Below are positions 39,027 to 64,000 of a stretch of 64,000 bases of DNA, in pieces. A program made the translations under genes and the position numbers. Source of the DNA: Gammaproteobacteria bacterium. GTDB lineage: Bacteria; Pseudomonadota; Gammaproteobacteria; Steroidobacterales; Steroidobacteraceae. The DNA is taken from contig PLAH01000125.1 in assembly GCA_003134045.1 (NCBI GenBank), positions 31,828 to 95,827 of the forward strand, written 5' to 3'. Numbering within the stretch: position 1 is the stretch's first letter; the number at the start of each line of letters is the position of its first letter. The notes under the pieces were generated by a model that saw only the letters and a program-made list of their open reading frames with translations, did no database searches and was not told the DNA's origin.

Positions 39027-39039
39027 CGTGGCCTCCGAT

Positions 39040-40386: not shown

Positions 40387-43300
40387 CGTGCGAATCAGTA
40401 ATTACGACCGGTTGACGGCGTAGCAGTCGATACATGGTCGGAACGAATATGAGCGTCGCCAGCGTTGCAAACAGTAGGCCGCCAATCACGGCTCTGCCCA
40501 ACGGGGCATTCTGTTCGCCGCCCTCGCCGATCCCGAGCGCCATCGGCACCATGCCGAGAATCATTGCGCCGGCCGTCATCAGCACCGGCCGAAGGCGCGT
40601 GTAGCCGGCGGTGGTCACGGCCAGCAGCGGGCTGTCGCCGGCGTCCATCCGCTGGTTGGCAAAGCTCACCACCAAAATACTGTTGGCTGTCGTCAAGCCG
40701 ATACACATGAGCGTACCCATCAGCGCCGGCACACTCATTGGTGTCTGCGAGAGGAAGAGCATCCACAGCACGCCGCCCAGCGCAAACGGCACCGCCATCA
40801 GCACAATCAGCGGGTCAATCCAGCTCTGAAAATTCATGACCAGGAACAAATACACGAGAACGATCGCCAGCCCGATGCCCGTAAAGAGCCCCGTGTAGCT
40901 CTCTTGCATGGTCTCGACTTGTCCGCTCAACGTCACTTTCAAAGCCGTCGACGCCGCGGGCTGATGCGCCTTGAGGACCTTCTCGATGTCTCCGGCCGCG
41001 GAATACAAATCGCGTCCTTGGACATCCGCATGAACATCAAAGACGGGCCGGATGTTCAACTGCGAGGTGACCAGCGGCAAGGCTTCGCGGCCGAAGGACG
41101 CCAAATTCAAGAGCAATTGTCCGGAACTCGAACCCCCTGAGGAGGTGACCGGCATGGTTTCCAGATCCTGCGAAGAGCCGATTCGGTAGGTCGGGACCTG
41201 CACGACCAATGCGTAGCTCACGCTGTTGCGCGGATCGACCCAAAAATTGGGGGCCGTCTGGGCGCTAGAGTTGGTCGCTACCAGCACGTTATTGGCCGCC
41301 TCCTGCTGCGTCACGCCGGTCTGGGTCGCCAACGTGCGATCCATATCGACGGTCAGCACCGGCGCGTTGGGAACCTGAAACACGTGCGAATCCACGACGC
41401 CGGCGACTCGTGTGAGGGAGCGCGCTATCTCCGAGGCCAGCGCAAACGCTTTGTCTTGGTCCGGGCCGGAAATGCGAACATCGATGGGTGCTGGCTGGCC
41501 GAAGTTCAAGACCTGGTCCACGATGTCGGCCGGCTGAAAGAAGAATTGAAGTTGGGCGAATTGCGCCGGCAACTCGCGCCGTAGCATGGCCACGATTTTC
41601 GCCGTCGGTGTGTGCTTCTCCGTCAATGAGATTAAAATCTCACCGTCCATGGGACCGACCGTGGCCGAATCGCTCAGCGCGATATTGATGCCGCTGTAAG
41701 GTAGCCCGATATTGTCGAGCATCACGTCGATCTGATCGTTGCCGACCAGCTTGCGGATCTGCGTCTCCACTTCGGCGAAATATTGTTGCGTCCGCTCGAG
41801 ACGTGTGCCGGGAGGCGCCCTGACGTGCAAGCGCATTTGACCGGCGTCCACCTGCGGGAAGAAATCTCGGCCCAGAAACGGGAACAGCGCCGCCGACACC
41901 GCAATGAGGGCCAAGAAGGCAATAACCGTGAGTCGTGCCTCGGAGAGAGCCCATGACAGGACATTTCGATAGTTTTCCCGAAATCGCTCAAACCCGCGTT
42001 CGAAGGCCGCTTGAAAGCGCACGAGCACGTTTTTTGACGGCGCCTCGGGCGGTCCAGGCGTATGCGACGACTTGTCGATGAATTCATGAACCGCGCCACG
42101 CATCAAATGGTTGAACAGGACCGGTACCATCGTGAACGATAGCGCAAGACTGGCCAGGAGTGAGCCGATCACGGACAACGACAACGGGGAGAACAGGTAC
42201 TTGGCCGTACCCTCGAGCAGAAACACCGGTACGAAGACGATACAGATGCACAACGTCGATAAAAATGTCGGTACCGCCACCTCACTCGCACCGACGACGA
42301 TCGCTTGATGCAGCGGCTCGCGCATGCCCACATGCCGCTCGATGTTTTCGATCACCACGGTGCCATTGTCGACGAGAATGCCGATTGCCAGCGCGAAGCC
42401 GCCCAACGTCATGGTGTTGAGCGTCTGACCGAGCAGCTTGATGAATAGAACCGCGGTGATGATGGACAACGGGATTGCCGCGAGAATGATGACGGACAGG
42501 CGAACGTTACCCAAAAACAGAATGATCACGACAGCCGTCAATCCTGCCGCCATGCCGGCGCTCAACAACACACTATGCAACGCGGCACGAACGAATACCG
42601 ATTGGTCGAAGAGCGCTTTGACACTGACCTCTTTGGGCAGCACATTCTTGAGATCCTCGAGCGCTGTCCGCACGCCATCGATGACGGCCAAGGTTGAAAC
42701 GCCGCCCGTCTTTCGGATCGTCATCAGCGCCCCGGGGGTCCCATTGACCGAGACCGAGTTGGTTTGCACTTGGAAGCCGTCGTGGACGTGGGCCACGTCG
42801 CGCATGAACACCGTCCGGCCATCGACCTGTTTGATCGGAAAGGCGTTGATGGTATCGAGAACGTCCGGGGAATTATTCATCGCGAGCATGTAGTCTTTGT
42901 CGCCGATCTTGACGTCGCCGGCCGGTAGAATCACGTTCTGGTGTTGTAATGCGTTGCTTACGTCCGATGCCGACAAGCCACGAGCCTGCAAGGCTTGCAG
43001 GTCCAGATCGGCCATGATGACGCGGGGTTTACCCCCGTATGGATAAGGCACCTCCGCACCGTGCACGACCGCGAGCGCCGGACGGATGATGTTCTGCCCG
43101 AGATCATTTAATTTCGTGTCAGGCAGCGATTTGCTCGACAGGCTCAGCTGGATGATGGGCACATCGGTCGCGCCATAGCGCAGGACCAAGGGAGGCGTGA
43201 TGTTGGGCGGCATGTACTTGAGCACCACCAACGCGCTGCTGGCGAGTTGGGAGATCGCTCGCGTGACATCGGCTCCCTCGTGCAGGTAGATCTTCTCGAC

Positions 43301-43570
43301 GCCCACGCCTTGATAGCTGACGGCCTCGATGCGGGAAATGTCGTCCACCAGAGAGGCTAATTGACGCTGGTGCAGAGTCAAAATCCGATTCTGGATGTCT
43401 TGCGCGCTCATGCCGTTGTAAGTCCACACGACGGCGGCCACCGGAATGTCGATCTCGGGGAAGATATCGATCGGCATGCGCAGCGCAGCGCCTATCCCCA
43501 TCAGCGTCACGAGGATCAGGACGGCAACGACGGTGTAGGGGCGTTTCAGCGCAATTTCAACAACAGACAT
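40358..43570 (-). CDS. RND efflux transporter permease (AcrB/HAE family)
   Basis: Track ORF 1070 aa. 12-TM pattern with two large periplasmic loops. GILVDNGTVVIENIERH motif. Confidence 0.9.
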   Translation of the reverse strand: MSVVEIALKRPYTVVAVLILVTLMGIGAALRMPIDIFPEIDIPVAAVVWTYNGMSAQDIQNRILTLHQRQLASLVDDISRIEAVSYQGVGVEKIYLHEGADVTRAISQLASSALVVLKYMPPNITPPLVLRYGATDVPIIQLSLSSKSLPDTKLNDLGQNIIRPALAVVHGAEVPYPYGGKPRVIMADLDLQALQARGLSASDVSNALQHQNVILPAGDVKIGDKDYMLAMNNSPDVLDTINAFPIKQVDGRTVFMRDVAHVHDGFQVQTNSVSVNGTPGALMTIRKTGGVSTLAVIDGVRTALEDLKNVLPKEVSVKALFDQSVFVRAALHSVLLSAGMAAGLTAVVIILFLGNVRLSVIILAAIPLSIITAVLFIKLLGQTLNTMTLGGFALAIGILVDNGTVVIENIERHVGMREPLHQAIVVGASEVAVPTFLSTLCICIVFVPVFLLEGTAKYLFSPLSLSVIGSLLASLALSFTMVPVLFNHLMRGAVHEFIDKSSHTPGPPEAPSKNVLVRFQAAFERGFERFRENYRNVLSWALSEARLTVIAFLALIAVSAALFPFLGRDFFPQVDAGQMRLHVRAPPGTRLERTQQYFAEVETQIRKLVGNDQIDVMLDNIGLPYSGINIALSDSATVGPMDGEILISLTEKHTPTAKIVAMLRRELPAQFAQLQFFFQPADIVDQVLNFGQPAPIDVRISGPDQDKAFALASEIARSLTRVAGVVDSHVFQVPNAPVLTVDMDRTLATQTGVTQQEAANNVLVATNSSAQTAPNFWVDPRNSVSYALVVQVPTYRIGSSQDLETMPVTSSGGSSSGQLLLNLASFGREALPLVTSQLNIRPVFDVHADVQGRDLYSAAGDIEKVLKAHQPAASTALKVTLSGQVETMQESYTGLFTGIGLAIVLVYLFLVMNFQSWIDPLIVLMAVPFALGGVLWMLFLSQTPMSVPALMGTLMCIGLTTANSILVVSFANQRMDAGDSPLLAVTTAGYTRLRPVLMTAGAMILGMVPMALGIGEGGEQNAPLGRAVIGGLLFATLATLIFVPTMYRLLRRQPVVITDSHVEGRANAIA

Positions 43571-50170: not shown

Positions 50171-50374
50171 ATGAAAAACTTCTTCGTCAGGCCTGCCCAG
50201 TCGACGCCAGCACCCAGGCCCTCTCGAGACTTGATGATTGCGCTCGCTCTGAAAGGTGCCCTCTTGTTTGCCATCTATCTATTGTGCTTCGGTCCGACGC
50301 ATCGCTTGCCGTCAGACGCTGCCGCGACGGCTGCGGCGCTGATCGGTGCGGCAGCGCCTGAGGAATCTCGATGA
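50171..50374 (+). CDS. Small membrane protein upstream of cydA (CydP-like)
   Basis: Track ORF 50087..50374 trimmed to MKNFFVRPAQ (ATG 50171). One TM helix, RDLMIALALKGALLFAIYLLCF. Its stop overlaps the cydA ATG (ATGA at 50371-50374). Confidence 0.5.
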   Translation: MKNFFVRPAQSTPAPRPSRDLMIALALKGALLFAIYLLCFGPTHRLPSDAAATAAALIGAAAPEESR

Positions 50375-51954
50375 ATTCGTCGAATCTGGTCGAGTTGTCT
50401 CGGTTGCAATTCGCCGCCACCGCGATGTATCACTTCCTATTCGTTCCGCTGACCTTGGGTTTGTCCGTGCTGATCGCAATAATGGAAAGCGTCTACGTCA
50501 TGACTGCGAGACCCATATGGCGCGACATGACGCGCTTCTGGGGAATCCTTTTCGGTATCAATTTTGCCATGGGTGTTGCTACCGGTATCACGATGGAATT
50601 TCAGTTCGGCACGAACTGGGCCTATTATTCACATTATGTCGGCGACATTTTCGGCGTGCCGCTCGCCATCGAAGGACTAATGGCGTTCTTCCTCGAGGGC
50701 ACGTTCATCGGTCTCTTCTTTTTCGGCTGGGATCGCCTGAGCCGCCGCCAGCATCTGTTGGTTACCTGGCTGGTCGCCATCGGCAGCAACCTATCGGCGC
50801 TGTGGATTCTCATTGCGAACGCCTGGATGCAAAATCCCACCGGCGCGCATTTCAACTCGAGCACCATGCGGATGGAACTCGATTCGATTCGGGACGTCAT
50901 TTTCAACCCTGTTGCTCAGTCCAAGTTCGTGCATACCGTAAGCGCCGGATATGTGACGGGTGCGGTTTTCGTACTCGCCGTCAGCGCGTGGTATCTCCTC
51001 AAAGGTCGGCACGTGGAATTTGCCAAGCGGTCGGCGACCGTCGCCATCAGCTTCGGGCTTGCGGCCGCGCTATCCGTGGTCGTTCTGGGTGATGAAAGCG
51101 GTTATACCCTGACCGAACACCAAAAAATGAAAATTGCCGCCGTCGAAGCCATGTGGCATACCGAGCCCGCGCCGGCGCCCTTCACTATCATCGGGATCCC
51201 GGACGCGGCCACGCGCCAGACGCGTGCGCAGATTCAAGTGCCGTGGATGCTCGGGCTCATTGCGACGCGTTCCTTGGATACGGAAGTTCCCGGGATCTAC
51301 GAACTCGTCGATCAGGCGAAAGCGCGGATCATCAGCGGGATTCCCGGCTATACGGCATTGCGTGAATTGCGAAATAACCCGAACGATGAGGCGGCCCGAC
51401 AGACACTGAAAGCGCACGTCGAGGATCTCGGATATGCGTTGCTTCTGCGCAAGTATGTCGCGGATCCTGCAAAGGCAACGCCCGCACAGATAGACCAGGC
51501 GGCCTGGGACACAGTGCCCTCGGTTGGCCCCATGTTTTGGACTTTTCGCGTGATGGTCGGCTTGGGCTTTTTTTTCATCGCCCTCTTCGGCATTGGTTTT
51601 TTTCTCGCCGCTCGCCGCCGAATCGCCCAAAGCCGCACCTTCCTCAAGGTGGCGCTTTGGGCTCTCCCGCTGCCGTGGTGCGCGGCGGAGCTAGGCTGGT
51701 TCGTCGCCGAGCATGGGCGACAGCCATGGGCGATCGAGGGCGTTCTGCCCACTTTCCTGGCGGTATCCCCGATCCCCGCATCGAGTGTCGCGCTCAGCCT
51801 CGCCGGTTTCGTGATGTTCTACACGGTACTGGCCGTGATCGACGTTTTCCTATTGAAAAAGTACGTCAAATTGGGGCCGGCGTCTGACACCTCCCGGCGC
51901 GCGGATGCAACGGACGCCGCTTCGGTTCCGGCGCCGGTCGGCTCACAGCCCTAG
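50371..51954 (+). CDS. cydA: Cytochrome bd ubiquinol oxidase subunit I
   Basis: Track ORF 527 aa. [23 protein letters not shown]-terminus, [14 protein letters not shown] motif. Confidence 0.95.
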
Positions 51955-51962
51955 GAGCGACT

Positions 51963-53102
51963 ATGTTCGACTTCGAAACATTGAAGGTCATTTGGTGGTT
52001 GCTGCTGGGCGTGCTGCTGATCGGTTTCGCCGTCATGGATGGCTTCGATTTGGGTGTCGGGATGCTGCTGCCGTTCATTGCGCGCACGGATACCGAACGG
52101 CGTGTGGTCATCAACACCGTCGGGCCCGTCTGGGAAGGCAACCAGGTCTGGCTGATCCTGGGCGGGGGTGCCATTTTCGCGGCGTGGCCGGCTCTCTATG
52201 CCGCCAGCTTCTCCGGGTTCTATTTAGCCATGCTGTTGGTCTTGGCAGCCCTGATTCTACGGCCGGTTGGCTTCAAGTTCCGCAGTAAAATGCCGGGCGT
52301 GCGCTGGCGTGCCAACTGGGATTGGGCGCTCTTCGTCGGTGGCGCAGTGCCTTCGCTCGTCTTTGGGGTTGCCATGGGAAACCTCATCGAGGGTGTCCCG
52401 TTCAGCTTCGATTCGGAACTACGTGCAACCTACACCTTCGGCTTGTTCGACCTCCTAAATCCCTTTGCCCTGCTTTGCGGTCTGGTGAGCGTAGCGATGC
52501 TCACAACGCACGGCGCAGTCTATCTGGCAATGAAAACCGATGGCGATCTGGCGCGGCGTGCACGTACGATTTCTCGTTATGCGGCGCTCGTCTGGGTCGC
52601 CCTGTTCGCACTGGCCGGGATATGGATTTGGAAGAGCGGCTACGGGATTGCGATCGTGACCGGCGCGCTGCCGGGGGGCGAACCCGATCCGCTCGCCAAG
52701 ACCGCCGTTTCCCGGACTGGAGCATGGCTTGCCAACTACGGGAAATGGCCATTGACCATGCTCGTACCCGCGATAGGCCTGGCGGCTCCCGTGCTGGTGG
52801 CGGCGCTCGCGAGCATCCGTCAGCGTCTCGTCGTGTTCACCGTCAGTGGTCTTGGCATCACCGGAGTCATCGGCAGCATGGGCGTCAGCCTGTTTCCATT
52901 CCTGCTGCCTTCATCCTCGCATCCTGGCAGCAGTTTGACGGTGTGGGACGCCTCGAGCAGTCATCGGACACTGGGCATCATGTTGATCGCCGTGGTGATC
53001 TTTCTGCCCATTATTTTGGCGTATACGAGTTGGGTCTATTGGGTCATGCGCGGTCCGGTGACGAGCGCCTACATCGAAGCCAATCGCGACACGAGCTACT
53101 GA
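51963..53102 (+). CDS. cydB: Cytochrome bd ubiquinol oxidase subunit II
   Basis: Track ORF 379 aa. [34 protein letters not shown]-terminus typical of CydB. Confidence 0.95.
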
Positions 53103-53111
53103 GGATCTGCC

Positions 53112-53243
53112 ATGTGGTATTTCAGCTGGATACTGGGTCTGGGTCTTGCCTGCGCATTCGCGATTCTCAATGCGATGTGGTTCGAACTGGATGCCGATCG
53201 GCATGCCGGCGATCGCCCGGCCGCCACCACTAATATTTCGTGA
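53112..53243 (+). CDS. cydX: Cytochrome bd oxidase small subunit CydX (43 aa, below the track cutoff)
   Basis: My translation: MWYFSWILGLGLACAFAILNAMWFELDADRHAGDRPAATTNIS. GAGGA upstream. MWYFxWILG...NAxW is the CydX signature. Confidence 0.8.
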   Translation: MWYFSWILGLGLACAFAILNAMWFELDADRHAGDRPAATTNIS

Positions 53244-53281: not shown

Positions 53282-53626
53282 ATGCAGATTGATGCACTCA
53301 ACGAATCGGCGGAACGCGCCGCAGAATTTCTGCGCTCGGTCGCGCACCCGGGCCGTTTGCGCATCGTCTGTGCACTCATGGACACGGAACTCTCGGCCAC
53401 CCAGCTGGCACGCCGCGCGCACCTACCGGCTCCGGCACTCTCCCAGCAAGCGGCAATCCTCGAGGCGGAAGGCCTGATTGGGCGGCGGCGCGATGGGCGG
53501 TCCGTGTTCTATCGGCTGGTGTCGCCGGAAATCAAACCGCTCGCCAAGCTGTTGTATCGATTGTTTTGTAGACCGGCGCAGGCCACGGCCGGTCGTCGCA
53601 CCAGGAAAAAAGGAGAGACCTTGTGA
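53282..53626 (+). CDS. ArsR/SmtB-family regulator with a BigR/SqrR-like Cys pair
   Basis: Track ORF 114 aa. wHTH region LSATQLARRAHLPAPALSQQAAILEAEGLI. Cys30 (RIVCAL) and Cys96 (RLFCRP), 66 residues apart. Confidence 0.8.
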   Translation: MQIDALNESAERAAEFLRSVAHPGRLRIVCALMDTELSATQLARRAHLPAPALSQQAAILEAEGLIGRRRDGRSVFYRLVSPEIKPLAKLLYRLFCRPAQATAGRRTRKKGETL

Positions 53627-53967
53627 ATAAGCAGAAGTCACCCATCGAGACCATGGATCCCGCCGAGGTTGCAACGTTGCTGAACGCCGGCAAGCTGCTG
53701 CTCATTGATGTTCGCGAGCCGAGCGAATACGCATCGGAGCGGATTGCCGGGGCGCTTCTCTATCCGCTCTCGACGTTCGATGCAGCCTCGCTGCCCGATG
53801 ACGGAGCGCGGCGGGTGGTCTTTCACTGCGGAAGCGGTAAGCGGTCGCTGACGGCTGCGGAACATCGTCTCGCGGCCGGTCAGAGCCACGCCGCGCACAT
53901 GGGCGGCGGCATAGCGGCCTGGAAAGCCGCTGGCCTACCCGTGCTTACACCCGGAACTTCTCGCTGA
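53623..53967 (+). CDS. Single-domain rhodanese (sulfurtransferase)
   Basis: Track ORF 114 aa. GTG start overlaps the ArsR stop (GTGA), AGGAGA upstream. Active-site loop FHCGSGKRS. Confidence 0.85.
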   Translation: MNKQKSPIETMDPAEVATLLNAGKLLLIDVREPSEYASERIAGALLYPLSTFDAASLPDDGARRVVFHCGSGKRSLTAAEHRLAAGQSHAAHMGGGIAAWKAAGLPVLTPGTSR

Positions 53968-54154: not shown

Positions 54155-54535
54155 TCAGTTTCTCCGAGCTGATTTGACCTTCGCCCTTTTGACGCGAGTC
54201 TTTGAGGCCGGTGGCGCGCAAAACGCCGAGTAGAGAATTTCCATGATTTTCAGGGCGGGTCCCTGCGCCAGCGCATAATAAACGGTCTGCGACTTCCGAT
54301 TCGTCGTGACGAGCCCGGCGTCGCGCAGAACACCCAAGTGCTGAGAGAGCGATGACTGACTCAGCGGCACGCGCTGATTGATCTCGCCCACCGACAAAGG
54401 ACCATCGATCAAGCAGCACAGCGTCAGGAGTCTCTGGTCATTGGCCAGTGCCTTGAGGAACGTGGCCGCCTCAACTGCATGATCCTGCATGACTTCCAGT
54501 GCAGGAAGAACTCGCTTGTACGTTGCACCCCTCAT
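54155..54535 (-). CDS. ArsR/SmtB-family regulator with a BigR/SqrR-like Cys pair
   Basis: Track ORF 54155..54577 (GTG). I prefer ATG at complement 54533-54535 (MRGATYK). wHTH region LSQSSLSQHLGVLRDAGLV. Cys40/Cys41 (LTLCCL) and Cys106 (SAFCAP), spacing 66/65, numbering close to BigR C42/C108 and SqrR C41/C107 as I recall them. Confidence 0.8.
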   Translation of the reverse strand: MRGATYKRVLPALEVMQDHAVEAATFLKALANDQRLLTLCCLIDGPLSVGEINQRVPLSQSSLSQHLGVLRDAGLVTTNRKSQTVYYALAQGPALKIMEILYSAFCAPPASKTRVKRAKVKSARRN

Positions 54536-54600
54536 TTCCTCTGCTCTCACGCGATGACCTCCTTTTTGGCTATGCACGGACTCTCTATTAATCGGCCTTT

Positions 54601-54611
54601 GCTAATTTAGC
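54601..54611. promoter_or_regulatory. Perfect palindrome GCTAA-T-TTAGC in the divergent ArsR / DUF2892 promoter region
   Basis: Read directly, in the spacer between the two divergent starts. The spacer is 145 bp with the ArsR ATG at 54535, or 103 bp with the track GTG at 54577. Candidate operator only. Confidence 0.35.
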
Positions 54612-54680
54612 AGATGATGATATGGTACGCCACGCGAAAGGCATAAATAGTTATTCGGAACAAGATTAAGGAGACCGAAG

Positions 54681-54884
54681 ATGAGCATTGATCGCTGGGT
54701 GCTGAGATTCGCGGGCACGATGATCCTTCTGAGTGTGCTTCTCGCGCATTTCGTGAGTGTCAATTGGCTTTGGCTCACCGCGTTCGTGGGCGCCAACCTG
54801 CTCCAATCCTCGTTTACCGGATTCTGTCCGCTGGCGATGCTGCTGAAGCGCTTCGGGGTTCAGCCCGGTCACGCGTTCTCCTGA
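54681..54884 (+). CDS. DUF2892 / YgaP-like small membrane protein
   Basis: Track ORF 67 aa. AAGGAG upstream. Two TM helices and the conserved FTGFCPL motif. Confidence 0.75.
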   Translation: MSIDRWVLRFAGTMILLSVLLAHFVSVNWLWLTAFVGANLLQSSFTGFCPLAMLLKRFGVQPGHAFS

Positions 54885-54902
54885 ACAATCGAAGTGTGGA
54901 CC

Positions 54903-55982
54903 ATGCGCCCGAACCGATCGGCATTGCGCTCGATTTTCCTGGCGGGGACCGTTCTCGCCGTGGCGGGATGCGGTGGCAAGACACCGCCGCCTCTGAACTC
55001 CCCTATCTCGGCGCTGGCGAGCATCGTTGTGCAGTCGGCGCATGCACCGCTCGAGCGCACCGTCGATGGCACCATTGAGGCTGTCAATCAGGCGACCGTC
55101 TCGGCCCAAACGGCCGGCAGAATCACCGAGATCCTCTACGATGTGAACGACGTGGTCCCCGCAGGCGCCGTCATCATCCGCCTCAAGGGAAATGAGCAAC
55201 GCGCGGGCCTCGAGGGAGCCCAGGCCGCACTCGCGGAAGCGAAGGCGCGTAACGCAGAGGCGGCGACTTCCTATCAGCGCATTTCAGAGCTGTTCCAGCG
55301 GCACGTGGTATCCAAAGCGCAGCTCGACCAGGCGACCGCGAATCGGGATGCCGCTGCCGCCCGATTGACGGCGGCGGATGCGGGCATTGCTACCGCGCGC
55401 GAGGGCGTTGGCTACACGGAAATCCGCGCCCCTTATGGCGGCGTCGTCACGAAACGGCTCGTGGAAGTGGGAGAGTCCGTGAGTCCCGGCACGCCGTTGA
55501 TGACCGGCCTGTCGCTTCGGGACCTGCGGGTCGATACCAACATTCCACAAAGCATCGTGATGCTGGTCCGCCGCCTCAACCAAGCGGCCGTGTACGTTGG
55601 GAATCGACGGGTTGAGGCGACGAAGATCACGATTTTTCCGGAGGCCGCGACTCCATCGAGCACGTTTCGCGCGCGATTGGATCTACCGCCCGGCGCACTC
55701 GATCTCGCGCCAGGCATGTATGTCAAAGTGGGATTCGTCATCGGCGAGACGGATCGTCTCTTGATACCGGCTTCGGCGGTGGTCGAGCGTAGTGAGGTCA
55801 CCGGTGTCTATGTGATCGATTCACACGGACAGGTATCGCTCCGGTACGTGCGCCCCGGACAGCGCGTGGGGGACAAGGTGGAAGTTCTTGCCGGGCTCGC
55901 CCCCGGCGAACGGATAGCGCTCGATCCCGTCGCGGCCGGCGCGCACGCGGACGCTGTCGCGGCATCGGGACCCAGCTCGTGA
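54903..55982 (+). CDS. RND efflux periplasmic adaptor lipoprotein
   Basis: Track ORF 54894..55982 (GTG). In-frame ATG 54903 gives MRPNRSALRSIFLAGTVLAVAGC (lipobox). Coiled-coil and barrel regions typical of MFPs. Confidence 0.85.
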   Translation: MRPNRSALRSIFLAGTVLAVAGCGGKTPPPLNSPISALASIVVQSAHAPLERTVDGTIEAVNQATVSAQTAGRITEILYDVNDVVPAGAVIIRLKGNEQRAGLEGAQAALAEAKARNAEAATSYQRISELFQRHVVSKAQLDQATANRDAAAARLTAADAGIATAREGVGYTEIRAPYGGVVTKRLVEVGESVSPGTPLMTGLSLRDLRVDTNIPQSIVMLVRRLNQAAVYVGNRRVEATKITIFPEAATPSSTFRARLDLPPGALDLAPGMYVKVGFVIGETDRLLIPASAVVERSEVTGVYVIDSHGQVSLRYVRPGQRVGDKVEVLAGLAPGERIALDPVAAGAHADAVAASGPSS

Positions 55983-58900
55983 CGAAACCGCTGGGTTTGA
56001 GCGGCCGGCTCGCGCGATTCTTTCTGGAGAACCAGCTGACGCCGCTGCTGGCATTGACCGCGCTTTTGATGGGGGCGTTCGCGGTCCTCGTGACGCCTCG
56101 CGAAGAGGAGCCGCAGATCGATGTCACCTTCGCCAATATTCTGATCCCGTTCCCCGGCGCGAGCTCGGAACAAGTGGAGAATCTCGTTGCGACCCCGATG
56201 GAGAAGGTGCTCGGCGAGATCTCCGGCGTCAAACACATCTATTCGGTCTCCCGCCCCGGGCTTGCGGTCTTGACCGTGCAGTATGAAGTCGGAATCCACC
56301 GCAACGACGCCATCGTGCGCCTCTACAACGCCGTGTATTCCAATCAGGATTGGCGTCCGGCGGGCGTTGGCATCGGTCAGCCGCTCATCAAGCCGAAGGG
56401 CATCGACGATGTGCCCATCGTGACGCTCACCTTGTGGAGTCGCAATCCCGCCTTGGGGGGGCATGAACTCGGACAGGTGGCGCGCGCCATCGAAAGTGAG
56501 TTGAAGCGGGTCCCTGACACCCGCAACGTTTATTCGATTGGGGACAGTGCTCCCATGATCCGGGTGGAGCTCGATCCGGGGCGGCTTTCGGCGGCGGGGC
56601 TCACCGCGGCCGACCTGGCGGCGGCGCTGCAAGCGGCGAATCTCGTCCGTCAGGCAGACGCGGTCGTGGATGAGAACCGGCTGTCGCCGGTGCAGGCCGG
56701 TCAGTTCCTCGCCAATCGCGACGATGTAGGCGGCCTCATCGTCTCGGCCCGCGATGGCAAGCCTATCTATCTCGACGACGTGGCGACCGTCACCGATGCC
56801 CCCCAGACACCCTCGCAATACGCGTGGTTCGGCTCGGGGCCGGCATTCGGCAAAGCAGGCGGCCAGGGCATCGGTCAAGCTCCTGCGGTGACGATCGCCA
56901 TTGCCAAGAAACCCGGTAGCAATGCGATCGATGTCGCAACCGCCATCATCAACCGCGTCGAACAATTGAAGGGCATCACGATCCCGTCCGGCGTCGAGGT
57001 GACGGTCACGCGCAACTACGGTGTCACAGCAAACGACAAAGCCAAGAAGCTGATTGAGAAGCTCCTATTCGCCACGGCGTCGGTCGTGATTCTGGTGTTG
57101 CTGGCCGTGGGTAAGCGCGAAGCCGTGGTGGTGGGCGCCGCCGTCATCGTCACTCTGGCCGCCACGCTCTTTGCGTCCTGGGCCTGGGGCTTTACGATCA
57201 ATCGGGTTTCCCTGTTCGCCTTGATTTTCGCGATCGGAATCCTCGTCGATGATGCCATCGTGATCGTCGAGAACGTGCACCGACATTTGTCCATCGACAG
57301 GGGTTCTCTGTCCGACGTCATCCCGGTCGCCGTGGACGAGGTTGGCGGACCCACGATTCTGGCCACCTTTACGGTGATCGCGGCGCTGCTGCCGATGGCG
57401 TTTGTCTCGGGGCTCATGGGCCCTTACATGAGTCCGATCCCCATCAATGCGAGTATGGGAATGCTCATCTCGCTGGGCGTGGCGTTGATCTTCACGCCGT
57501 GGCTGTGCCGAAAGTTATTCGCAAGGGAAGCACGCAACGAAGCCGCGGAATCCAAAATGGAAGGCAAGCTGCACCGGTGGTTCGAACATCTGATGGCTCC
57601 ATTCTTGCTGGGAGAGCATGCGCGCCGCAACCGCCATCGATTGTATTTCGGCACGGCGGGCGCGATCGTCGTTGCGGTGCTGCTCGCCGTGGTTCAACTC
57701 GTCGTCTTGAAAATGCTGCCGTTCGACAATAAGTCTGAATTTCAGGTGGTCGTCAACATGCCCGAGGGCACGCCGGTCGAAGGAACCGCTCGGGTGCTGG
57801 CGGGGTTGGCGGCGATCGTGCGGCAAGTACCGGAAGTCACCGATTATCAAGCGTATGCGGGAACCGCCGCCCCCATCAATTTCAATGGCTTGGTGCGTCA
57901 GTACTACTTACGGGGCGATAGCAATCAAGGCGATCTGCAGGTCAATCTGATCGATAAACACGATCGGAGCCGCAAGAGTCACGATATCGCACGCGCCATT
58001 CGGCCGGCACTTGCCGCTGAGGGCAAGAGGCTCGGGGCCGCCTCCGTTCAAGTGGTCGAGGTGCCCCCGGGGCCGCCGGTGCAGGCTCCCTTGGTGGCCG
58101 AGATCTACGGCCCGGCCTATGCCGCGCAAGAACGAATCGGGCGGGCGCTGCGCAGGGTATTCGATTCGACTCGCGATATCGTCGATACCGACGATACCCT
58201 CGCTGCCCCGGTGCCTCGGTTCATCGTCTCGCTCGATCGTGCGAAGGCGGCGCTACTGGGTGTGACCCAGGCGGCGGTCTCTGAATCGCTCACCACGGCG
58301 CTCGCCGGATTCGATGCGACCTATGTCCATTCGGGCCGCGAGCGCGATCCGATTGCCGTGCATCTCGAACTCGGATCGGCCGACAAGCAGGGGCTTGAAC
58401 GGGCGCTCGCCCTCCCGGTGCGCAGCGCAACCGGCTCCTTGGTGCCCTTGTCCGAAGTGGTCACGGTGTCGAAGGTGCCGTGGGATGCGACGATTTACCA
58501 CAAAGATCTCTTACCCGTGGTGTTCGTCACCGGCGACATGGCCGGCCGGCTCGATAGTCCGCTCTACGGCATGTTCGACATCGTCTCGCAGATCGATAAA
58601 GCCCCGCCCGCCGGACAGCCGATCATGCAACGCTTCATGAGTCCGCCCGACCGTCCGAGTGAATTCAGCGTGAGGTGGGACGGCGAGTGGACGATCACCT
58701 ACGAAACGTTCCGCGACATGGGTCTCGCGTACGCCGTGGGCCTCGTGTTCATCTACCTGCTCGTGGTGGCGCAATTCCGCTCCTATGCCGTGCCGCTCAT
58801 TATTATGGCGCCGATTCCCCTGACCATCATTGGCGTAATGCCCGGGCATGCGCTGCTCGGCGCTCAATTCACCGCGACCTCGATGATCGGAATGATCGCG

Positions 58901-59203
58901 CTGGCCGGCATCATTGTCCGCAACTCCATTTTGCTGGTTGACTTCATCAACCAGGAGATCGCGGCGGGACAGCCGCTCGCGCAGGCAGTCATGCGCGCGG
59001 CCTCCATTCGGGCGCGGCCCATCGTCCTCACAGGTCTGGCCGCGATGATCGGGGCGTTTTTCATCATCGACGATCCGATATTCAACGGTCTCGCCATTTC
59101 CCTGATCTTTGGGATCTTGGTATCGACGGCGTTGACGCTTCTGCTGATTCCGCTGCTCTATTACGGCTACATCAAGCGCTCTCATGCGAGCGCCGCTATC
59201 TAA
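55979..59203 (+). CDS. RND efflux transporter permease
   Basis: Track ORF 1074 aa. GTG start overlaps the adaptor stop (GTGA). 12-TM / two-loop pattern. GILVDDAIVIVENVHRH motif. Confidence 0.9.
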   Translation: MTKPLGLSGRLARFFLENQLTPLLALTALLMGAFAVLVTPREEEPQIDVTFANILIPFPGASSEQVENLVATPMEKVLGEISGVKHIYSVSRPGLAVLTVQYEVGIHRNDAIVRLYNAVYSNQDWRPAGVGIGQPLIKPKGIDDVPIVTLTLWSRNPALGGHELGQVARAIESELKRVPDTRNVYSIGDSAPMIRVELDPGRLSAAGLTAADLAAALQAANLVRQADAVVDENRLSPVQAGQFLANRDDVGGLIVSARDGKPIYLDDVATVTDAPQTPSQYAWFGSGPAFGKAGGQGIGQAPAVTIAIAKKPGSNAIDVATAIINRVEQLKGITIPSGVEVTVTRNYGVTANDKAKKLIEKLLFATASVVILVLLAVGKREAVVVGAAVIVTLAATLFASWAWGFTINRVSLFALIFAIGILVDDAIVIVENVHRHLSIDRGSLSDVIPVAVDEVGGPTILATFTVIAALLPMAFVSGLMGPYMSPIPINASMGMLISLGVALIFTPWLCRKLFAREARNEAAESKMEGKLHRWFEHLMAPFLLGEHARRNRHRLYFGTAGAIVVAVLLAVVQLVVLKMLPFDNKSEFQVVVNMPEGTPVEGTARVLAGLAAIVRQVPEVTDYQAYAGTAAPINFNGLVRQYYLRGDSNQGDLQVNLIDKHDRSRKSHDIARAIRPALAAEGKRLGAASVQVVEVPPGPPVQAPLVAEIYGPAYAAQERIGRALRRVFDSTRDIVDTDDTLAAPVPRFIVSLDRAKAALLGVTQAAVSESLTTALAGFDATYVHSGRERDPIAVHLELGSADKQGLERALALPVRSATGSLVPLSEVVTVSKVPWDATIYHKDLLPVVFVTGDMAGRLDSPLYGMFDIVSQIDKAPPAGQPIMQRFMSPPDRPSEFSVRWDGEWTITYETFRDMGLAYAVGLVFIYLLVVAQFRSYAVPLIIMAPIPLTIIGVMPGHALLGAQFTATSMIGMIALAGIIVRNSILLVDFINQEIAAGQPLAQAVMRAASIRARPIVLTGLAAMIGAFFIIDDPIFNGLAISLIFGILVSTALTLLLIPLLYYGYIKRSHASAAI

Positions 59204-59219
59204 CTACACGGGGTTATCC

Positions 59220-60500
59220 ATGGCACACGTCATCGTCATTGGCGCAGGATTGGGGGGCATTCCCGCCGCATTCGACCTGCGCAAGCATCTTCCCAAAAGC
59301 CATCGCGTGACGTTGATCGGCGCAAGACCGTATTTCGAATTCACGCCCTCGAATCCCTGGATTGCGGTGGGATGGCGAACGACCGCAGAGACCCGTGTGA
59401 CGATGCAAGCACCGCTCGATAACAAGGGCATCCAATGGGTTGTCAATACCGTCACCCAGATCGATGCTGAACACTCCAAGCTCGAGCTCGATGACGGCAA
59501 GGAACTCCACTATGACTACCTCGTCATTGCGACCGGACCGCGTCTCGCCTTCGAGGAAGTGCCCGGGTTGGGCCCGGACGGATTCACGCAGTCGGTGTGC
59601 AGCCAGGACCATTCGGCGCAGGCATGGACGCGATATCAGGATTTCTTAAAAAATCCCGGCCCCATCATCGTCGGTGCGGCGCCCGGTGCCAGTTGTTTCG
59701 GCCCCGCATACGAAACCGCGATGATATTGGATTCCGATCTACGCAAACGCAAGCTGCGAGACCGTGTGCCGATGACTTACGTGACGAGCGAGCCGTACAT
59801 CGGCCACATGGGCTTGGGCGGCGTTGGCGACAGCAAGGGGCTCATGGAATCGGAACTGCGCGAGCGCCACATCAAATGGATTGCCAACGCCAAGATGACC
59901 TCCGTCACCGCGAATGAGATGACCGTGCAGGAACTCCATGAGGACGGAGCGCTCAAGAAGGAGCACAAGTTGCCGTTCGCGTACAGCGCCGTGATCCCCG
60001 CGTTTAAGGGCGTCGACGCCGTGGCGGCGGTGCCGGGACTGTGCAATCCGCGCGGCTTCGTGCTGATCGACAAGCATCAGCGAAACCCGAAGTACACGAA
60101 TATCTTCTCCGTCGGCGTCTGTGTCGCCATCCCGCCGGTCGAGGCAACCCCCGTCGCGACCGGTGCGCCGAAGACGGGCTACATGATCGAATCGATGGTA
60201 TCGGCCACGGCGGCCAATATCGTCGCTGAAATTGCCGGCAAGCCGGCGGTCGCCGAAGCCACTTGGAATGCCATTTGCCTGGCGGATTTTGGCGACACCG
60301 GAGCCGCATTCGTCGCGCTCCCGCAGATTCCGCCGCGCAATGTCACGTGGTTCAAGAAGGGCAAGTGGGTGCACTTGGCGAAGGTCGCGTTCGAAAAATA
60401 TTTCCTGCGCAAGGTACGCACCGGTTCGTTGACCCCGATCTACGAAACCTATGTGCTCAAGGCACTGGGCATCGTGTCGCTCAAGCGTCGCGCAAACTGA
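59220..60500 (+). CDS. sqr: Sulfide:quinone oxidoreductase (type I-like)
   Basis: Track ORF 59184..60500 trimmed to MAHVIVIGAGLGG (ATG 59220). FAD fold. Cys127 (QSVCSQ), Cys159 (GASCFGPAYE) and a third Cys in NAICLADFGD parallel the three catalytic Cys of Acidithiobacillus-type SQR. Confidence 0.85.
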   Translation: MAHVIVIGAGLGGIPAAFDLRKHLPKSHRVTLIGARPYFEFTPSNPWIAVGWRTTAETRVTMQAPLDNKGIQWVVNTVTQIDAEHSKLELDDGKELHYDYLVIATGPRLAFEEVPGLGPDGFTQSVCSQDHSAQAWTRYQDFLKNPGPIIVGAAPGASCFGPAYETAMILDSDLRKRKLRDRVPMTYVTSEPYIGHMGLGGVGDSKGLMESELRERHIKWIANAKMTSVTANEMTVQELHEDGALKKEHKLPFAYSAVIPAFKGVDAVAAVPGLCNPRGFVLIDKHQRNPKYTNIFSVGVCVAIPPVEATPVATGAPKTGYMIESMVSATAANIVAEIAGKPAVAEATWNAICLADFGDTGAAFVALPQIPPRNVTWFKKGKWVHLAKVAFEKYFLRKVRTGSLTPIYETYVLKALGIVSLKRRAN

Positions 60501-60517
60501 AGAGGTAGACGAGTACC

Positions 60518-61834
60518 ATGACCGCTCGTGAATCGGCACGCAACGTCCCTCCACTGCCGCGCTGGGCACTGTGGACGTTGCTCGCGATCCCCTGGGTCAG
60601 CCACGCGGAATCGTTGAGCGATGCGTGGACTATGGCTCTGCAGTCGGACGGCACGGTGGCGGCCGCGCACAGTGAACGGGATGCGGCAGAGGCTGAACGC
60701 TCCGCTGCGATGCGCCAGCGTTGGCCATCACTGGATCTCAACGGTAACTACACCCAGCTACAACACGCGCCGCAATTCGACTTTACGACGCCCACCGGCC
60801 AGATACTGGCGCCAATTTGGCGGCACGACGGGTACGCGGCGGCCGGCGCCGATTTATCGGTGCCGGTTTGGACATCGGGTGGAACCAGCGGGGCCATTGG
60901 CGCCGCCGCCGCCGGCGTCCGAGGAGCCGCCGCCCAGGAGGTGGGAAGCGCGGCCGATGTGAAACTCGCCGTTGCCGAATCCTATGTGGCGGTGTTCCGC
61001 GCCCGCAGGGCGTTGGCCGTGGCCGAGTCGAACGTGGCGAGCCTGATGGCGCATCGCGACGATGTGCAGGTCATGTACGACACACAAGCGGTGCCGCAGT
61101 CGGATCTGCTCGGGGCTCAGGTTTCGTTCGCCAATGCCCAGCAACAACGTTTGCGTGCCGCCAATGCCCTGCATTTGGCGACGGCCGCTTACAACCGCTG
61201 GGTCGGTCAGCCCTTGGATCGCGCTCCCGAACTCGATGAGCCATCGACCACGCCGGCTGGCGATACCGGCGAACCACTCGAGCAGTTGGTCGCTCATGCC
61301 CTCGATCGTCGCCCCGAACTTGCGGCGTTGAGCGCGCAGCAAGAGAAGTTTGAGCAAGCCGCGCGGTCGGAACGTGCGCAAGGGCTGCCGCAGGTTGCAC
61401 TGCACGCGGGCTACAACCACTTCGACAATCAGATCTTGGATCGTGAGAATTTCGCGTCGATCGGTATCGGATTTCAGTGGCGAGTCTTCGATAGCGGACA
61501 GCTCAAGGCAAGAACGAGCGCCTTGCACAGCCACGCGCGCGCCACGGGTCAACAGCTTGCCGATTTTCGATCGATGGTAGCGCTGCAAGTGGAAACCGCC
61601 TTTCTCGATCGTGAGGAATCGATCGCGAGAATTCACGTCTCTGCCGCGGCTGTTGCCCAGGCGGAAGAAAACGTCCGGGACGCCAAGGAACTCTACGGGA
61701 ACGGGCTTGGAACCAGCAATCAAGTGTTGGACGCGGAAACCCTCCGCGTAGTCGCGTTGACCAATCGGGATGACGCCGCCTTCGATCTACTCATCGCAGA
61801 GTTCCGGTTGCAGCGCGCGCTCGGAGACTTGTGA
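60518..61834 (+). CDS. TolC-family outer-membrane efflux protein
   Basis: Track ORF 438 aa. Signal peptide ...WVSHA. Two tandem OEP repeats. Confidence 0.85.
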   Translation: MTARESARNVPPLPRWALWTLLAIPWVSHAESLSDAWTMALQSDGTVAAAHSERDAAEAERSAAMRQRWPSLDLNGNYTQLQHAPQFDFTTPTGQILAPIWRHDGYAAAGADLSVPVWTSGGTSGAIGAAAAGVRGAAAQEVGSAADVKLAVAESYVAVFRARRALAVAESNVASLMAHRDDVQVMYDTQAVPQSDLLGAQVSFANAQQQRLRAANALHLATAAYNRWVGQPLDRAPELDEPSTTPAGDTGEPLEQLVAHALDRRPELAALSAQQEKFEQAARSERAQGLPQVALHAGYNHFDNQILDRENFASIGIGFQWRVFDSGQLKARTSALHSHARATGQQLADFRSMVALQVETAFLDREESIARIHVSAAAVAQAEENVRDAKELYGNGLGTSNQVLDAETLRVVALTNRDDAAFDLLIAEFRLQRALGDL

Positions 61835-61904: not shown

Positions 61905-62687
61905 ATGTTGACGTTGACTTCGCTGCAATACCTGCTGGGGGCCGTGTCAGGCAGCCTCGTCGGCTTCACTCTCGGGCTCGTCGGAGGCGGCGGATCCATC
62001 CTCGCAGTGCCCTTGATGATTTATGTGGTGGGCGTCCGCAACCCGCATGTGGCGATCGGCACCAGTGCGTTTGCGGTCGCGGCCAACGCGGCCGTCGGCC
62101 TGATTCATCATGCGCGACAGGGACGCGTCATATGGCGGTGCGGTGGAATCTACGCGCTTGCCGGTATTGTTGGCGCGCTTGCCGGCTCAACGGTCGGCAA
62201 GTATTTCGATGGACAGCGGCTCCTGTTTTTGTTTGCGCTGGTGATGATTCTGGTGGGCGTCCTGATGTTGCGGCGACGGCACGATAGCGGAGTCGCGGGT
62301 GCAGCCTGTCACCGAGGGAATGCCGGCAAAGTGTTGAGCTTCGGGTTCGGCACCGGTGTGTTCTCGGGCTTCTTCGGAATTGGGGGTGGATTCCTGATCG
62401 TGCCGGGCCTGATGGGCTCGACCAACATGCCCATGCTGAATGCGGTGGGCACGTCGCTCGTGGCGGTCACTGCCTTTGGACTCACGACCTCACTGAATTA
62501 CGCCCTCTCGGGCTTGGTGGATTGGCCGCTCGCAGGTGTATTCATTGCGGGCGGAGTGATGGGAAGCACGATCGGAACCACGGCCGCAAAGCGCCTCGCG
62601 GGTACCGCCGGCCGATTGACGAGCGTATTCGCGATGTTGATCTTTCTCGTCGCGGCCTACATGCTCTGGCGCGGCAGCCACCCTTAG
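61905..62687 (+). CDS. TauE/SafE-family anion (sulfite/organosulfonate) exporter
   Basis: Track ORF 61770..62687 trimmed to MLTLTSLQYLLG (ATG 61905). GGGGSILAVPLM and GIGGGFLIVPGL repeats. Confidence 0.8.
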   Translation: MLTLTSLQYLLGAVSGSLVGFTLGLVGGGGSILAVPLMIYVVGVRNPHVAIGTSAFAVAANAAVGLIHHARQGRVIWRCGGIYALAGIVGALAGSTVGKYFDGQRLLFLFALVMILVGVLMLRRRHDSGVAGAACHRGNAGKVLSFGFGTGVFSGFFGIGGGFLIVPGLMGSTNMPMLNAVGTSLVAVTAFGLTTSLNYALSGLVDWPLAGVFIAGGVMGSTIGTTAAKRLAGTAGRLTSVFAMLIFLVAAYMLWRGSHP

Positions 62688-62693
62688 GGAACC

Positions 62694-63185
62694 ATGATTC
62701 AGACTCGCATTCCGCCACCCGTCTATGCGCTTTGCACGGCTCTGTTCATGTGGCTCGCGAATCGGCACGCCCCCGCCATTCGATGGATCGCCGCCCCATG
62801 GAATGAGTTCGGATGGATATTGATTGCACTGGGTTTGGCGTTGGACCTGCATTCGATACTGATCTTCATTCGCACACGCACAACGGTAAATCCGCTTCGC
62901 CCCGGAAATGCGACCCAATTGGTCGTATCTGGCGTCTACCGGATTTCCCGCAATCCCATGTATCTTGGCATGGTGCTGTCCCTGAGCGGGTGGGCGTGGC
63001 TACTTGGCAGCCCGTTGTGCTTGCTCATGGTTTTACTATTCGCTCGTGTCTTGGTCATCGTTCAAATCACTCCCGAAGAGATTGCGTTGCGAGACCTGTT
63101 CGGCACGAGCTATGGTGACTATTGCAAGCAAGTCAACCGCTGGATTGGCCGAAAGGGTCGGTCCACCAAACGTCCCCCAGAATGA
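62694..63185 (+). CDS. Membrane methyltransferase of the ICMT/PEMT family
   Basis: Track ORF 163 aa. Four TM helices. LVVSGVYRISRNPMYLGMVL signature. Confidence 0.75.
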   Translation: MIQTRIPPPVYALCTALFMWLANRHAPAIRWIAAPWNEFGWILIALGLALDLHSILIFIRTRTTVNPLRPGNATQLVVSGVYRISRNPMYLGMVLSLSGWAWLLGSPLCLLMVLLFARVLVIVQITPEEIALRDLFGTSYGDYCKQVNRWIGRKGRSTKRPPE

Positions 63186-63210
63186 ATATCGATGTAACAC
63201 GAGGTCAGGC

Positions 63211-64000
63211 ATGTCAACCCGCCACGAATCATCTGTCAATGCGGCACAGATCGACTATTGGAACGCGACCGCGGGTGAAACCTGGGCGTTGTTTCAGGAA
63301 CAATTGGATCGCCAGATAGCGCCGCTGGGCCTCGAGGGATTGAGGGTTCTTGCGCCTGCGACCGGGGAAAGGGTAATCGATATCGGCTGCGGATGCGGCC
63401 AGACGTCATTGGATCTTGCGCGCCGAGTGGGAAGCAATGGTCACGTGGTAGGCGTCGATATCTCCGCGCCGATGCTCGATGTGGCTCGTCATCGGCCCCT
63501 ATCGGGCTCGGCGATGCGGCCGGAGTTTCGCGAAGTCGATGCGCAAAGCGTCGATCTGGGGCATGCCGTGTTTGACGCCGGCTTCTCCCGCTTCGGAGTG
63601 ATGTTCTTCAGTGATCCCATCGCCGCGTTTTCGAATATCCGTCGATCGCTGAAGCCGCGCGGACGCTTGGGCTTCGTGTGCTGGCGCCCACTTTCGGAGA
63701 ATACCTGGATGCTGGCGCCGCTGAACGCCGCGCTTCCGTTCCTGCCGGCGCCGCCGCCGGCGGATCCCTTGGCGCCGGGTCCGTTTGCGCTTTCCGACGC
63801 CGGCCGCGTGCGGTCCATCTTGCGTGATGCCGGTTTCGGGTCGGTGACGATCGAGCCTTTCGACGCCATCATCGGCAGCGGCGACATCGAACAAACCTTG
63901 GAGTTGACGCTCGAGGTTGGGCCGCTGGGGGCGGCGCTGCGCGAGAATCCGCAGCAGAAAAGCAATGTGGCCGATGCGGTGCGCAAAGTGCTGACACACT
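63211..64000 (+). CDS. Class I SAM-dependent methyltransferase (3' end beyond the window)
   Basis: Not in the track (no stop inside the window). My translation from ATG 63211 (GAGG upstream): MSTRHESSVNAAQIDYWNATAGETW...RVIDIGCGCGQTSLDLARRVG (motif I)...GRLGFVCW. Confidence 0.75.
   Translation, partial: MSTRHESSVNAAQIDYWNATAGETWALFQEQLDRQIAPLGLEGLRVLAPATGERVIDIGCGCGQTSLDLARRVGSNGHVVGVDISAPMLDVARHRPLSGSAMRPEFREVDAQSVDLGHAVFDAGFSRFGVMFFSDPIAAFSNIRRSLKPRGRLGFVCWRPLSENTWMLAPLNAALPFLPAPPPADPLAPGPFALSDAGRVRSILRDAGFGSVTIEPFDAIIGSGDIEQTLELTLEVGPLGAALRENPQQKSNVADAVRKVLTH

Follow-up and report, generated by a model that had tools for sequence, protein, structure and literature searches.

An operon of Steroidobacteraceae predicted to co-produce sulfide:quinone oxidoreductase and a distinct RND pump under persulfide control

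How do sulfide oxidizers that have no sulfur-globule proteins move insoluble zero-valent sulfur past the outer membrane? For Rhodobacter capsulatus the origin of the extracellular S0 is stated as not known (Shimizu et al. 2023, PMC9995734). The question is raised anew by a 64,000-nucleotide stretch of DNA, hereafter the window, from a gammaproteobacterium of the family Steroidobacteraceae (assembly GCA_003134045.1, contig PLAH01000125.1, positions 31,828 to 95,827), in which a gene for sulfide:quinone oxidoreductase (SQR) lies between the genes for the inner-membrane pump and the outer-membrane channel of a tripartite resistance-nodulation-division (RND) efflux system. The original prediction, made from the letters of the window, held that the pump exports the sulfane sulfur made by SQR and thereby stands in for a persulfide dioxygenase (PDO) that is missing from view. 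We conclude that the locus is a sulfide-stress module. An operon, probably derepressed by persulfide, that lies beside a quinol oxidase and co-produces an SQR of type I together with a dedicated tripartite pump is firmly supported. Clearance of zero-valent sulfur, or of a close derivative made by SQR, to the outside is the best reading of what the pump does, and one to which we give somewhat less than even weight. The genes of the module and its control region are as follows (coordinates are positions in the window):

54681-54884, + strand: DUF2892/YgaP_TM protein (Pfam PF11127, E 2e-12), the first gene of the operon
54903-55982, + strand: RND periplasmic adaptor (membrane fusion protein, MFP), a lipoprotein; ATG at 54903 (TIGR01730, 207 bits, cut-off 94.9)
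55979-59203, + strand: RND inner-membrane permease of a distinct HAE1-like subfamily; GTG start (ACR_tran over its full length, E 1e-147)
59220-60500, + strand: type I SQR, as judged by PDB matches and catalytic Cys; ATG at 59220
60518-61834, + strand: TolC-family outer-membrane factor (OMF); ATG at 60518 (OEP twice, E 5e-53)
54155-54577, - strand: SqrR/BigR/HlyU-type two-Cys ArsR repressor (Pfam HTH_5), divergent from the operon
54599-54626, + strand: putative operator and promoter (palindrome with -35-like and -10-like boxes)

The open reading frame listing, profile searches and a reading of the junctions bear out to the base the gene identities, coordinates and spacings that had been proposed. 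The DUF2892, adaptor, RND, sqr and OMF genes all lie on the same strand; the GTG of the RND gene falls within the adaptor stop (GTGA, a 4-nt overlap), and gaps of 16 nt and 17 nt follow between RND and sqr and between sqr and OMF, respectively. The predicted exports carry the expected signals, with a lipobox LAVAG/C in the adaptor and a signal peptide ...WVSHA/ESL in the OMF. A consensus scan returned five terminator-like matches in the scanned region, all weak and fewer than in shuffled sequence, of which four lie within the rnd or sqr coding sequence and one downstream of the gene for a PEMT/ICMT methyltransferase, and none at the intergenic junctions of the operon. Scanned in the same way, the junctions and the surroundings of sqr yielded no internal promoter beyond the shuffled-sequence expectation, a result that still allows for one. 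Tight spacing and junctions free of terminator-like matches thus agree with the co-expression of sqr and the pump genes deduced earlier from gene position, and we infer a single transcript in this organism. That transcript would not end at 61834, where the original prediction had placed it, because same-strand genes for a TauE-family protein, a PEMT/ICMT-type methyltransferase and a class I S-adenosylmethionine (SAM) methyltransferase continue beyond this position.

The strongest evidence that SQR and pump belong together comes from related genomes. We examined the 80 closest SQR relatives (63-90% identity) in species-dereplicated genomes with 10-kb flanks (locus numbers carry the prefix L), and took as informative those loci that had an orthologous pump within 3 kb of sqr or that were pump-free with 6 kb or more on each side. 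In 48 of the 55 informative loci an orthologous pump (54-86% identical) lay within 2.7 kb of sqr, and seven well-flanked loci lacked it; the flanks of the other 25 of the 80 were too short to judge. Pump and SQR were encoded on the same strand in all linked loci but one (47 of 48). The linked loci span gamma- and betaproteobacterial groups (Steroidobacteraceae, Lysobacterales, Comamonadaceae and Methylophilaceae), and their genes come in at least four arrangements. Twelve loci, most of them from Steroidobacteraceae, have adaptor-RND-SQR-OMF; SQR-DUF2892-adaptor-RND is found in Lysobacterales (Stenotrophomonas, Lysobacter and Dyella among them), adaptor-RND-SQR-DUF2892 in Comamonadaceae and in metagenome-assembled genomes of related Burkholderiales, and SQR-OMF-adaptor-RND in Woeseiaceae. 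Retention of the linkage through such shuffling of gene order indicates a functional tie between SQR and pump. Pairwise identities of SQR and RND proteins are also correlated (r = 0.81, 29 loci), and the pump-free SQRs form a separate cluster (Thiodiazotropha, Sedimenticola, Chromatiaceae), several of them with a sigma-54-type regulator gene adjoining sqr. The comparative genomics for which the original prediction had called therefore upholds the adjacency as non-random: with 48 of 55 informative loci linked, the pairing of SQR and pump is effectively more than chance.

TrxC-type thioredoxin genes adjoin these SQR-RND clusters in six loci (L005, at 12648-13100, L014, L020, L033, L039 and L042) and OsmC-like peroxiredoxin genes in five (L001, at 3629-4069, L002, L004, L012 and L022), neighbours that are consistent with a thiol or persulfide stress regulon.

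The window SQR matches the Acidithiobacillus ferrooxidans SQR structures over residues 2-423 (E 8e-160, 55% identity over 422 residues) and the Aquifex SQR with E 3e-112, the former match taking in the C-terminal membrane-binding helices; far weaker, among type II and III SQRs and FCSD, are the matches to the A. ambivalens SQR (3h8i, listed as 'NADH oxidase', 4e-23), human SQR (~2e-17) and FCSD (3e-11 or weaker). Its C127, C159 and C353 share alignment columns with the catalytic C128, C160 and C356 of the A. ferrooxidans enzyme, and its N-terminal FAD fold is marked by VIGAGLGG at residues 5-12 and by a Pyr_redox_2 match (PF07992, E 7e-21). The FAD fold and the three type-I-like Cys noticed at the outset were thereby recovered, the former through its GxGxxG motif and the latter through the A. 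ferrooxidans columns, and on this comparison we assign the protein to the type I sulfide:quinone oxidoreductases. Its closest homologues (~90% identical) are labelled Steroidobacteraceae. In vitro, the product of SQR is polysulfide and then elemental sulfur (PMC8232776).

The permease retains the architecture of its superfamily, with PF00873 covering residues 13-1062 of 1074, and departs from the characterized members in its details. It is 22% identical to AcrB and appears to keep the proton-relay residues D407, D408, R971 and T978, with K940 replaced by R; clade-wide conservation of the relay D, D, R and T is 97% or above and the K940 column is Arg in 97%, as read from an alignment at only 22% identity. 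The AcrB Phe cluster is not kept (F136, F178, F610, F615, F617 and F628 become P, I, Y, L, Y and Q). Among NCBIfam models the best match is NF033617, with 450 bits where the cut-off is 1250, which places the pump outside the curated multidrug subfamilies; the HME profile TIGR00914, whose cut-off is 701, gives 239. Gln stands in the column of AcrB M573 (AcrB numbering, distinct from the M573/M623/M672 triad of CusA itself), and no conserved Cys column was found across the clade. The nearest solved relatives, MdtB, TriC and MexK, score only ~210-220 bits. Closer in sequence is the pump encoded beside the SqrR homologue of Rhodobacter aestuarii, to which the window pump is 40-41% identical over its full length; that SqrR homologue is itself 91% identical to R. 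capsulatus SqrR. Judged by profile scores, the window pump belongs to a distinct RND subfamily that falls below the cut-off of every named HAE1 or HME family.

To view the pairing from the side of the pump, a metagenome scan was seeded with a five-member alignment of the subfamily and returned 80 loci. Among the well-flanked loci of the alpha-type branch, SQR was present in 7 of 12, DUF2892 in 9 of 12 and a SqrR/BigR-type regulator in 7 of 12. Of the 27 well-flanked loci in a distant branch (39-49% identity), 20 have DUF2892, usually directly after the pump gene; among the neighbours in this branch are ArsR regulators, OsmC-like proteins, rhodaneses and a CoADR-rhodanese-like gene. SQR is thus a recurrent partner in the alpha-, beta- and gammaproteobacterial branches of the pump subfamily, and retention of DUF2892 even where SQR is missing indicates that the conserved core is pump plus DUF2892. 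In the window, DUF2892 is a YgaP-like membrane protein of 67 aa with two transmembrane (TM) segments and a CP motif at Cys49. This Cys, together with G12, F35, N39, Q42 and G59, is invariant in all 93 of the 93 DUF2892 homologues that adjoin SQR or this pump subfamily, and the protein may serve the pump as a small subunit or act as an adaptor that carries sulfur. Within L087-L166, DUF2892 genes stand beside the pump, for example in L116 (13156-13359), L119 (3133-3315) and L143 (13162-13344).

Control of the operon by a persulfide sensor is suggested by both the divergent regulator and the DNA in front of DUF2892. The regulator spans 126-140 aa (gene callers give 126-131 aa, and the true start is probably an internal ATG) and matches HlyU (1e-22), BigR (7e-21) and SqrR (7e-16) in the PDB; both sensing Cys, C42 and C108 of BigR, align in it within LTLCCL and YSAFCAP. 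Against the NCBIfam BigR model NF040642 it scores 87 bits, below the cut-off of 155, and is therefore a member of the family but no BigR equivalog. The palindrome TTGCTAATTTAGCA occupies 54599-54612, its left half is a -35-like TTGCTA, and a 16-nt spacer separates this box from a -10-like TATGGT (54621-54626). The form TTGCTAATTTAGCA(A) is common to the regulator-DUF2892 intergenic regions of ten loci, and palindrome and spacing are kept in L001, L002, L004, L005, L007, L009, L011, L012 and L022. No second copy with up to 3 mismatches occurs in the window, for example at cydA or at the second regulator gene. The putative operator thus appears to overlap the operon promoter, where the repressor would be expected to bind. 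Retention of both sensing Cys and a conserved palindrome overlapping the promoter lend support to the persulfide-sensing repressor of the original prediction.

The module is flanked by regulators of the ArsR type in Gammaproteobacteria and of the CsoR family in Betaproteobacteria. That thiol sensors of two unrelated families stand next to one and the same module supports the view that sulfide or persulfide controls the pump along with sqr. In several loci (L028, 1848-2177; L031, 11578-11937; L051, L054, L060 and L063) a gene for a CsoR/FrmR-family two-Cys regulator directly follows DUF2892 and takes the place of the ArsR-type repressor; this betaproteobacterial regulator may be a CstR-like persulfide sensor.

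The remaining features of the window that concern sulfur, redox or efflux flank the module:

50371-53243, + strand: cydA, cydB and cydX (cytochrome bd quinol oxidase; identified by Pfam, CydX by TIGR02106)
53282-53626, + strand: second two-Cys ArsR regulator, both sensing Cys present
53623-53967, + strand: single-domain rhodanese, active site CGSGKR
61905-62687, + strand: TauE/SafE-family anion exporter, accessory (PF01925, E 1e-48; start as in the gene call of L084)
62694-63185, + strand: PEMT/ICMT-family membrane methyltransferase, accessory (PF04191, E 7e-14)
63211-64000, + strand: class I SAM methyltransferase, truncated at the edge of the window
37497-43570, - strand: second tripartite RND system (RND, adaptor, OMF), its pump 25% identical to the sulfide-linked pump

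Cytochrome bd quinol oxidase tolerates sulfide. The cyd genes are followed by the second two-Cys, SqrR-type regulator and the rhodanese, and cydAB recurs near this SQR clade in L001, L002, L041, L052, L064, L076 and L098; this suggests a respiratory unit that tolerates sulfide, leads from SQR through quinone to cytochrome bd and is controlled by persulfide. On the other side of the module, the operon tail (61905-64000; in L084, 12686-15325) consists of TauE, the two methyltransferases and a DsrE-family gene; the last lies just outside the window, after the SAM methyltransferase, and was seen on identical metagenome contigs. This tail is missing from the closest relatives L001 and L002, and methylation of sulfide or persulfide is a possible role. 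The PEMT/ICMT methyltransferase was rejected as an MddA orthologue (27 bits against a cut-off of 270). The second RND system, which is unrelated, is adjoined by genes for a response regulator and a CLC channel, and housekeeping genes fill the remainder of the window. An SQR protein identical to that of the window was found in 58 contig-collection blocks, many on contigs of 50 kb-1 Mb and including L084-L086 (JGI 3300037176 and 3300037094; ENA ERZ27247314), which indicates that the organism or very close strains have been assembled repeatedly from environmental samples.

The original prediction had treated the lack of a PDO as a mark of the system. Absence from the window was confirmed on each count: no HxHxDH motif occurs in any frame segment of at least 120 aa in the 64 kb, tblastn with an ETHE1 query gave no match in the same 64 kb, and no MBL-fold Pfam match was found among the main candidate open reading frames scanned, which were selected by composition. 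It is likewise correct that the only rhodanese of the window sits with the second two-Cys ArsR regulator. As a feature of the module, the missing PDO fails, since a PDO lies within 10 kb in eleven related loci. In L008 the operon opens with the gene for a Blh-type PDO (4651-5505), which overlaps DUF2892 by 4 nt in the order PDO-DUF2892-adaptor-RND-SQR-OMF; PDO genes are inside or directly adjoin the cluster in five loci (L008, L028, L031, L065 and L066) and are also found within 10 kb in L027, L038, L050, L052 and L079. PDOs inside related clusters thus rule out PDO absence as a defining feature and show that the pump is not simply a PDO substitute.

These observations allow us to propose how the module might work. 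The persulfide-sensing two-Cys ArsR repressor would occupy the promoter palindrome until rising cytoplasmic sulfane sulfur frees the promoter. The released transcript would encode DUF2892, adaptor, RND pump, SQR and TolC-like channel, followed by TauE and the methyltransferases. SQR would oxidize H2S at the membrane and pass the electrons to quinone, and the adjacent cytochrome bd oxidase would reoxidize the quinol even with sulfide present. The product of SQR would be zero-valent sulfur, as polysulfide or hydrophobic S8, and pump, adaptor and channel would collect that sulfur, or something closely derived from it, in the periplasm or at the outer leaflet of the inner membrane and expel it past the outer membrane. 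AcrB-type RND pumps capture their substrates from the periplasm or the outer leaflet; this mode of capture and the chemistry of SQR, which runs from polysulfide to S8, both fit export. A narrower proposal, that the pump subfamily and the invariant-Cys DUF2892 are together dedicated to exporting zero-valent sulfur, be it S8, polysulfide or membrane-bound persulfide, is possible and rather doubtful.

Several points weigh against export. The substrate of the pump is deduced from its context, and SQR may sit on either face of the membrane. Soluble polysulfide anions could leave through porins. The window pump has one non-conserved Cys and no Met cluster of its own, so its sequence gives no pointer to sulfur chemistry; the lack of a conserved Cys and of the Phe cluster is neutral as to the substrate. 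In the distant branch of the subfamily, SQR was present in 0 of 27 well-flanked loci, which means that the job of the pump needs no SQR. The PDOs in or near related clusters (eleven loci within 10 kb, five of them adjacent) imply that export would not be the sole route of disposal. Finally, deletion of the SQR-RND operon of Azospira suillum PS left the rate of perchlorate-dependent sulfide oxidation unchanged (PMC5358917); this oxidation runs via PcrAB, so the deletion was no test of export.

The main rival to export holds that pump and DUF2892 remove other toxic species that build up in a cell stressed by sulfide or persulfide (organic persulfides or polysulfides, methylated sulfur compounds, electrophiles that react with thiols, or complexes of metal and sulfide) and that SQR is merely a co-regulated neighbour, an account we consider somewhat unlikely. 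It would explain why the distant branch combines pump and DUF2892 with ArsR, OsmC-like, rhodanese and CoADR-rhodanese-like genes in the absence of SQR; OsmC-like and TrxC genes beside the SQR clusters and the two methyltransferases and TauE of the window operon point the same way, and export of metal sulfide was proposed by Mehta-Kolte et al. (PMC5358917). Set against this, SQR lies between or abuts the pump genes in most alpha-, beta- and gamma-type loci, an arrangement tighter than ordinary membership of a regulon; the metal version meets a pump that lacks HME signatures (TIGR00914 at 239 versus 701, Gln at the AcrB-M573 column); and the methyltransferases are not kept even in the closest relatives, L001 and L002. 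That the pump is an ordinary multidrug-type transporter of hydrophobic compounds, without a sulfur-specific substrate, that came under a sulfide-responsive promoter seems improbable to us. HAE1 pumps (MdtB, TriC, MexK and AcrB) do provide its best profile and PDB matches and the proton-relay residues appear conserved, but its 450 bits against 1250 leave it far under every curated multidrug cut-off, it shares only 22-25% identity with AcrB and the other RND pump of the window, the Phe cluster of the AcrB distal pocket is not kept, and in three classes of proteobacteria the subfamily goes systematically with DUF2892, persulfide sensors and SQR.

The version put forward by the original prediction, in which the pump replaces the missing PDO as the sole disposal route for sulfane sulfur, is hard to sustain and fares, in our view, a shade worse than the multidrug account: although no PDO was found in the 64 kb or within 10 kb in most related loci, a Blh-type PDO is in or beside the cluster in the five loci named above, L008 among them, and lies within 10 kb in the further five that include L027. 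A fortuitous adjacency of sqr and pump, with no functional link, is scarcely credible, given that the pairing outlasts changes of gene order in 48 of the 55 informative loci, that the pump-first survey recovers it independently and that the SQR-RND genes of Azospira are co-induced (PMC5358917). Export of zero-valent sulfur, or of a close derivative made by SQR, therefore remains the leading reading of the role of the pump.

With regard to the question posed at the outset, the conserved, sulfide-regulated RND-DUF2892 unit joined to sqr is a concrete candidate, and its carriers include cultured, genetically tractable organisms, among them Azospira suillum PS, Acidovorax soli DSM 25157 (L044), Dyella sp. 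KULCS107 (L076) and Lysobacter brunescens (L050). If export were true, the unit would supply the missing route by which proteobacteria that form no globules, including Rhodobacter, deposit SQR-derived sulfur outside the cell. No RND pump before it would have had a substrate that is inorganic and not a metal, so that RND substrates would gain a new class; DUF2892 would gain a function, and for proteobacteria of soil, sediment and wastewater the annotation of how sulfide is tolerated and how sulfur is deposited outside the cell would need revision. If the pump exports something else, the module is still an uncharacterized branch of the persulfide stress regulon.

The arrangement of SQR with an RND pump has been seen before, and the pump has never been explained; our search of the literature on SQR, RND and the export of sulfane or elemental sulfur found no study of the function or substrate of this pump. 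The nearest precedent is Dsui_3440-3443 of A. suillum PS, an operon that encodes a small hypothetical protein and an RND pump together with SQR and an adaptor (Mehta-Kolte et al. 2017, mBio, PMC5358917). The RNA-seq signal of all four genes rose from ~log2 1-4 to ~8.6-10.6 with H2S, and Bar-seq also flagged the operon; export of metal sulfide was the authors' guess for the pump, whose role they left open (PMC5358917). The gene content annotated there is the same as in the window, as compared by annotation and not by sequence, whereas no OMF, TauE or methyltransferases are reported for Azospira. RND genes beside SqrR/sHdrR-type regulators, including R. capsulatus SqrR, were tabulated by Li et al. 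(2025, Mol Microbiol, PMC12423496, Table S1), who suggested that these genes take part in transporting sulfur compounds; the adjacency was only tabulated. Like those systems, the window encodes a two-Cys ArsR persulfide sensor beside an RND pump, which in R. aestuarii is of the same subfamily; there, however, sqr lies outside the pump cluster, no DUF2892 is found within 10 kb and the regulator gene is convergent rather than divergent.

Wider comparisons set the module apart from better-known systems with which it shares components. Canonical SQR-PDO-rhodanese operons under FisR, BigR or CstR, exemplified by Cupriavidus, by bigR-blh of Xylella and Agrobacterium and by the cst operon of S. aureus, resemble it in having a persulfide-responsive repressor of sqr, a TauE-family exporter and a rhodanese; the window differs in that it has no PDO, its SQR is assigned to type I rather than type II, and its core is an RND pump with DUF2892. 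With AcrAB-TolC and MexAB-OprM (HAE1) and with CusCBA and CzcCBA (HME) it shares a lipoprotein adaptor, a 12-TM permease with an apparent DD/R/T relay and a TolC-like channel, but its pump is only ~22% identical to AcrB, has no Phe-rich distal pocket and comes with a constant DUF2892 partner. The ygaVP system of E. coli likewise places a DUF2892 membrane hairpin under a SqrR-type regulator, the two-Cys ArsR protein YgaV, and includes a rhodanese (family: PMC12423496); YgaP, however, is a rhodanese fused to DUF2892, whereas the DUF2892 of the window is free-standing and coupled to an RND pump.

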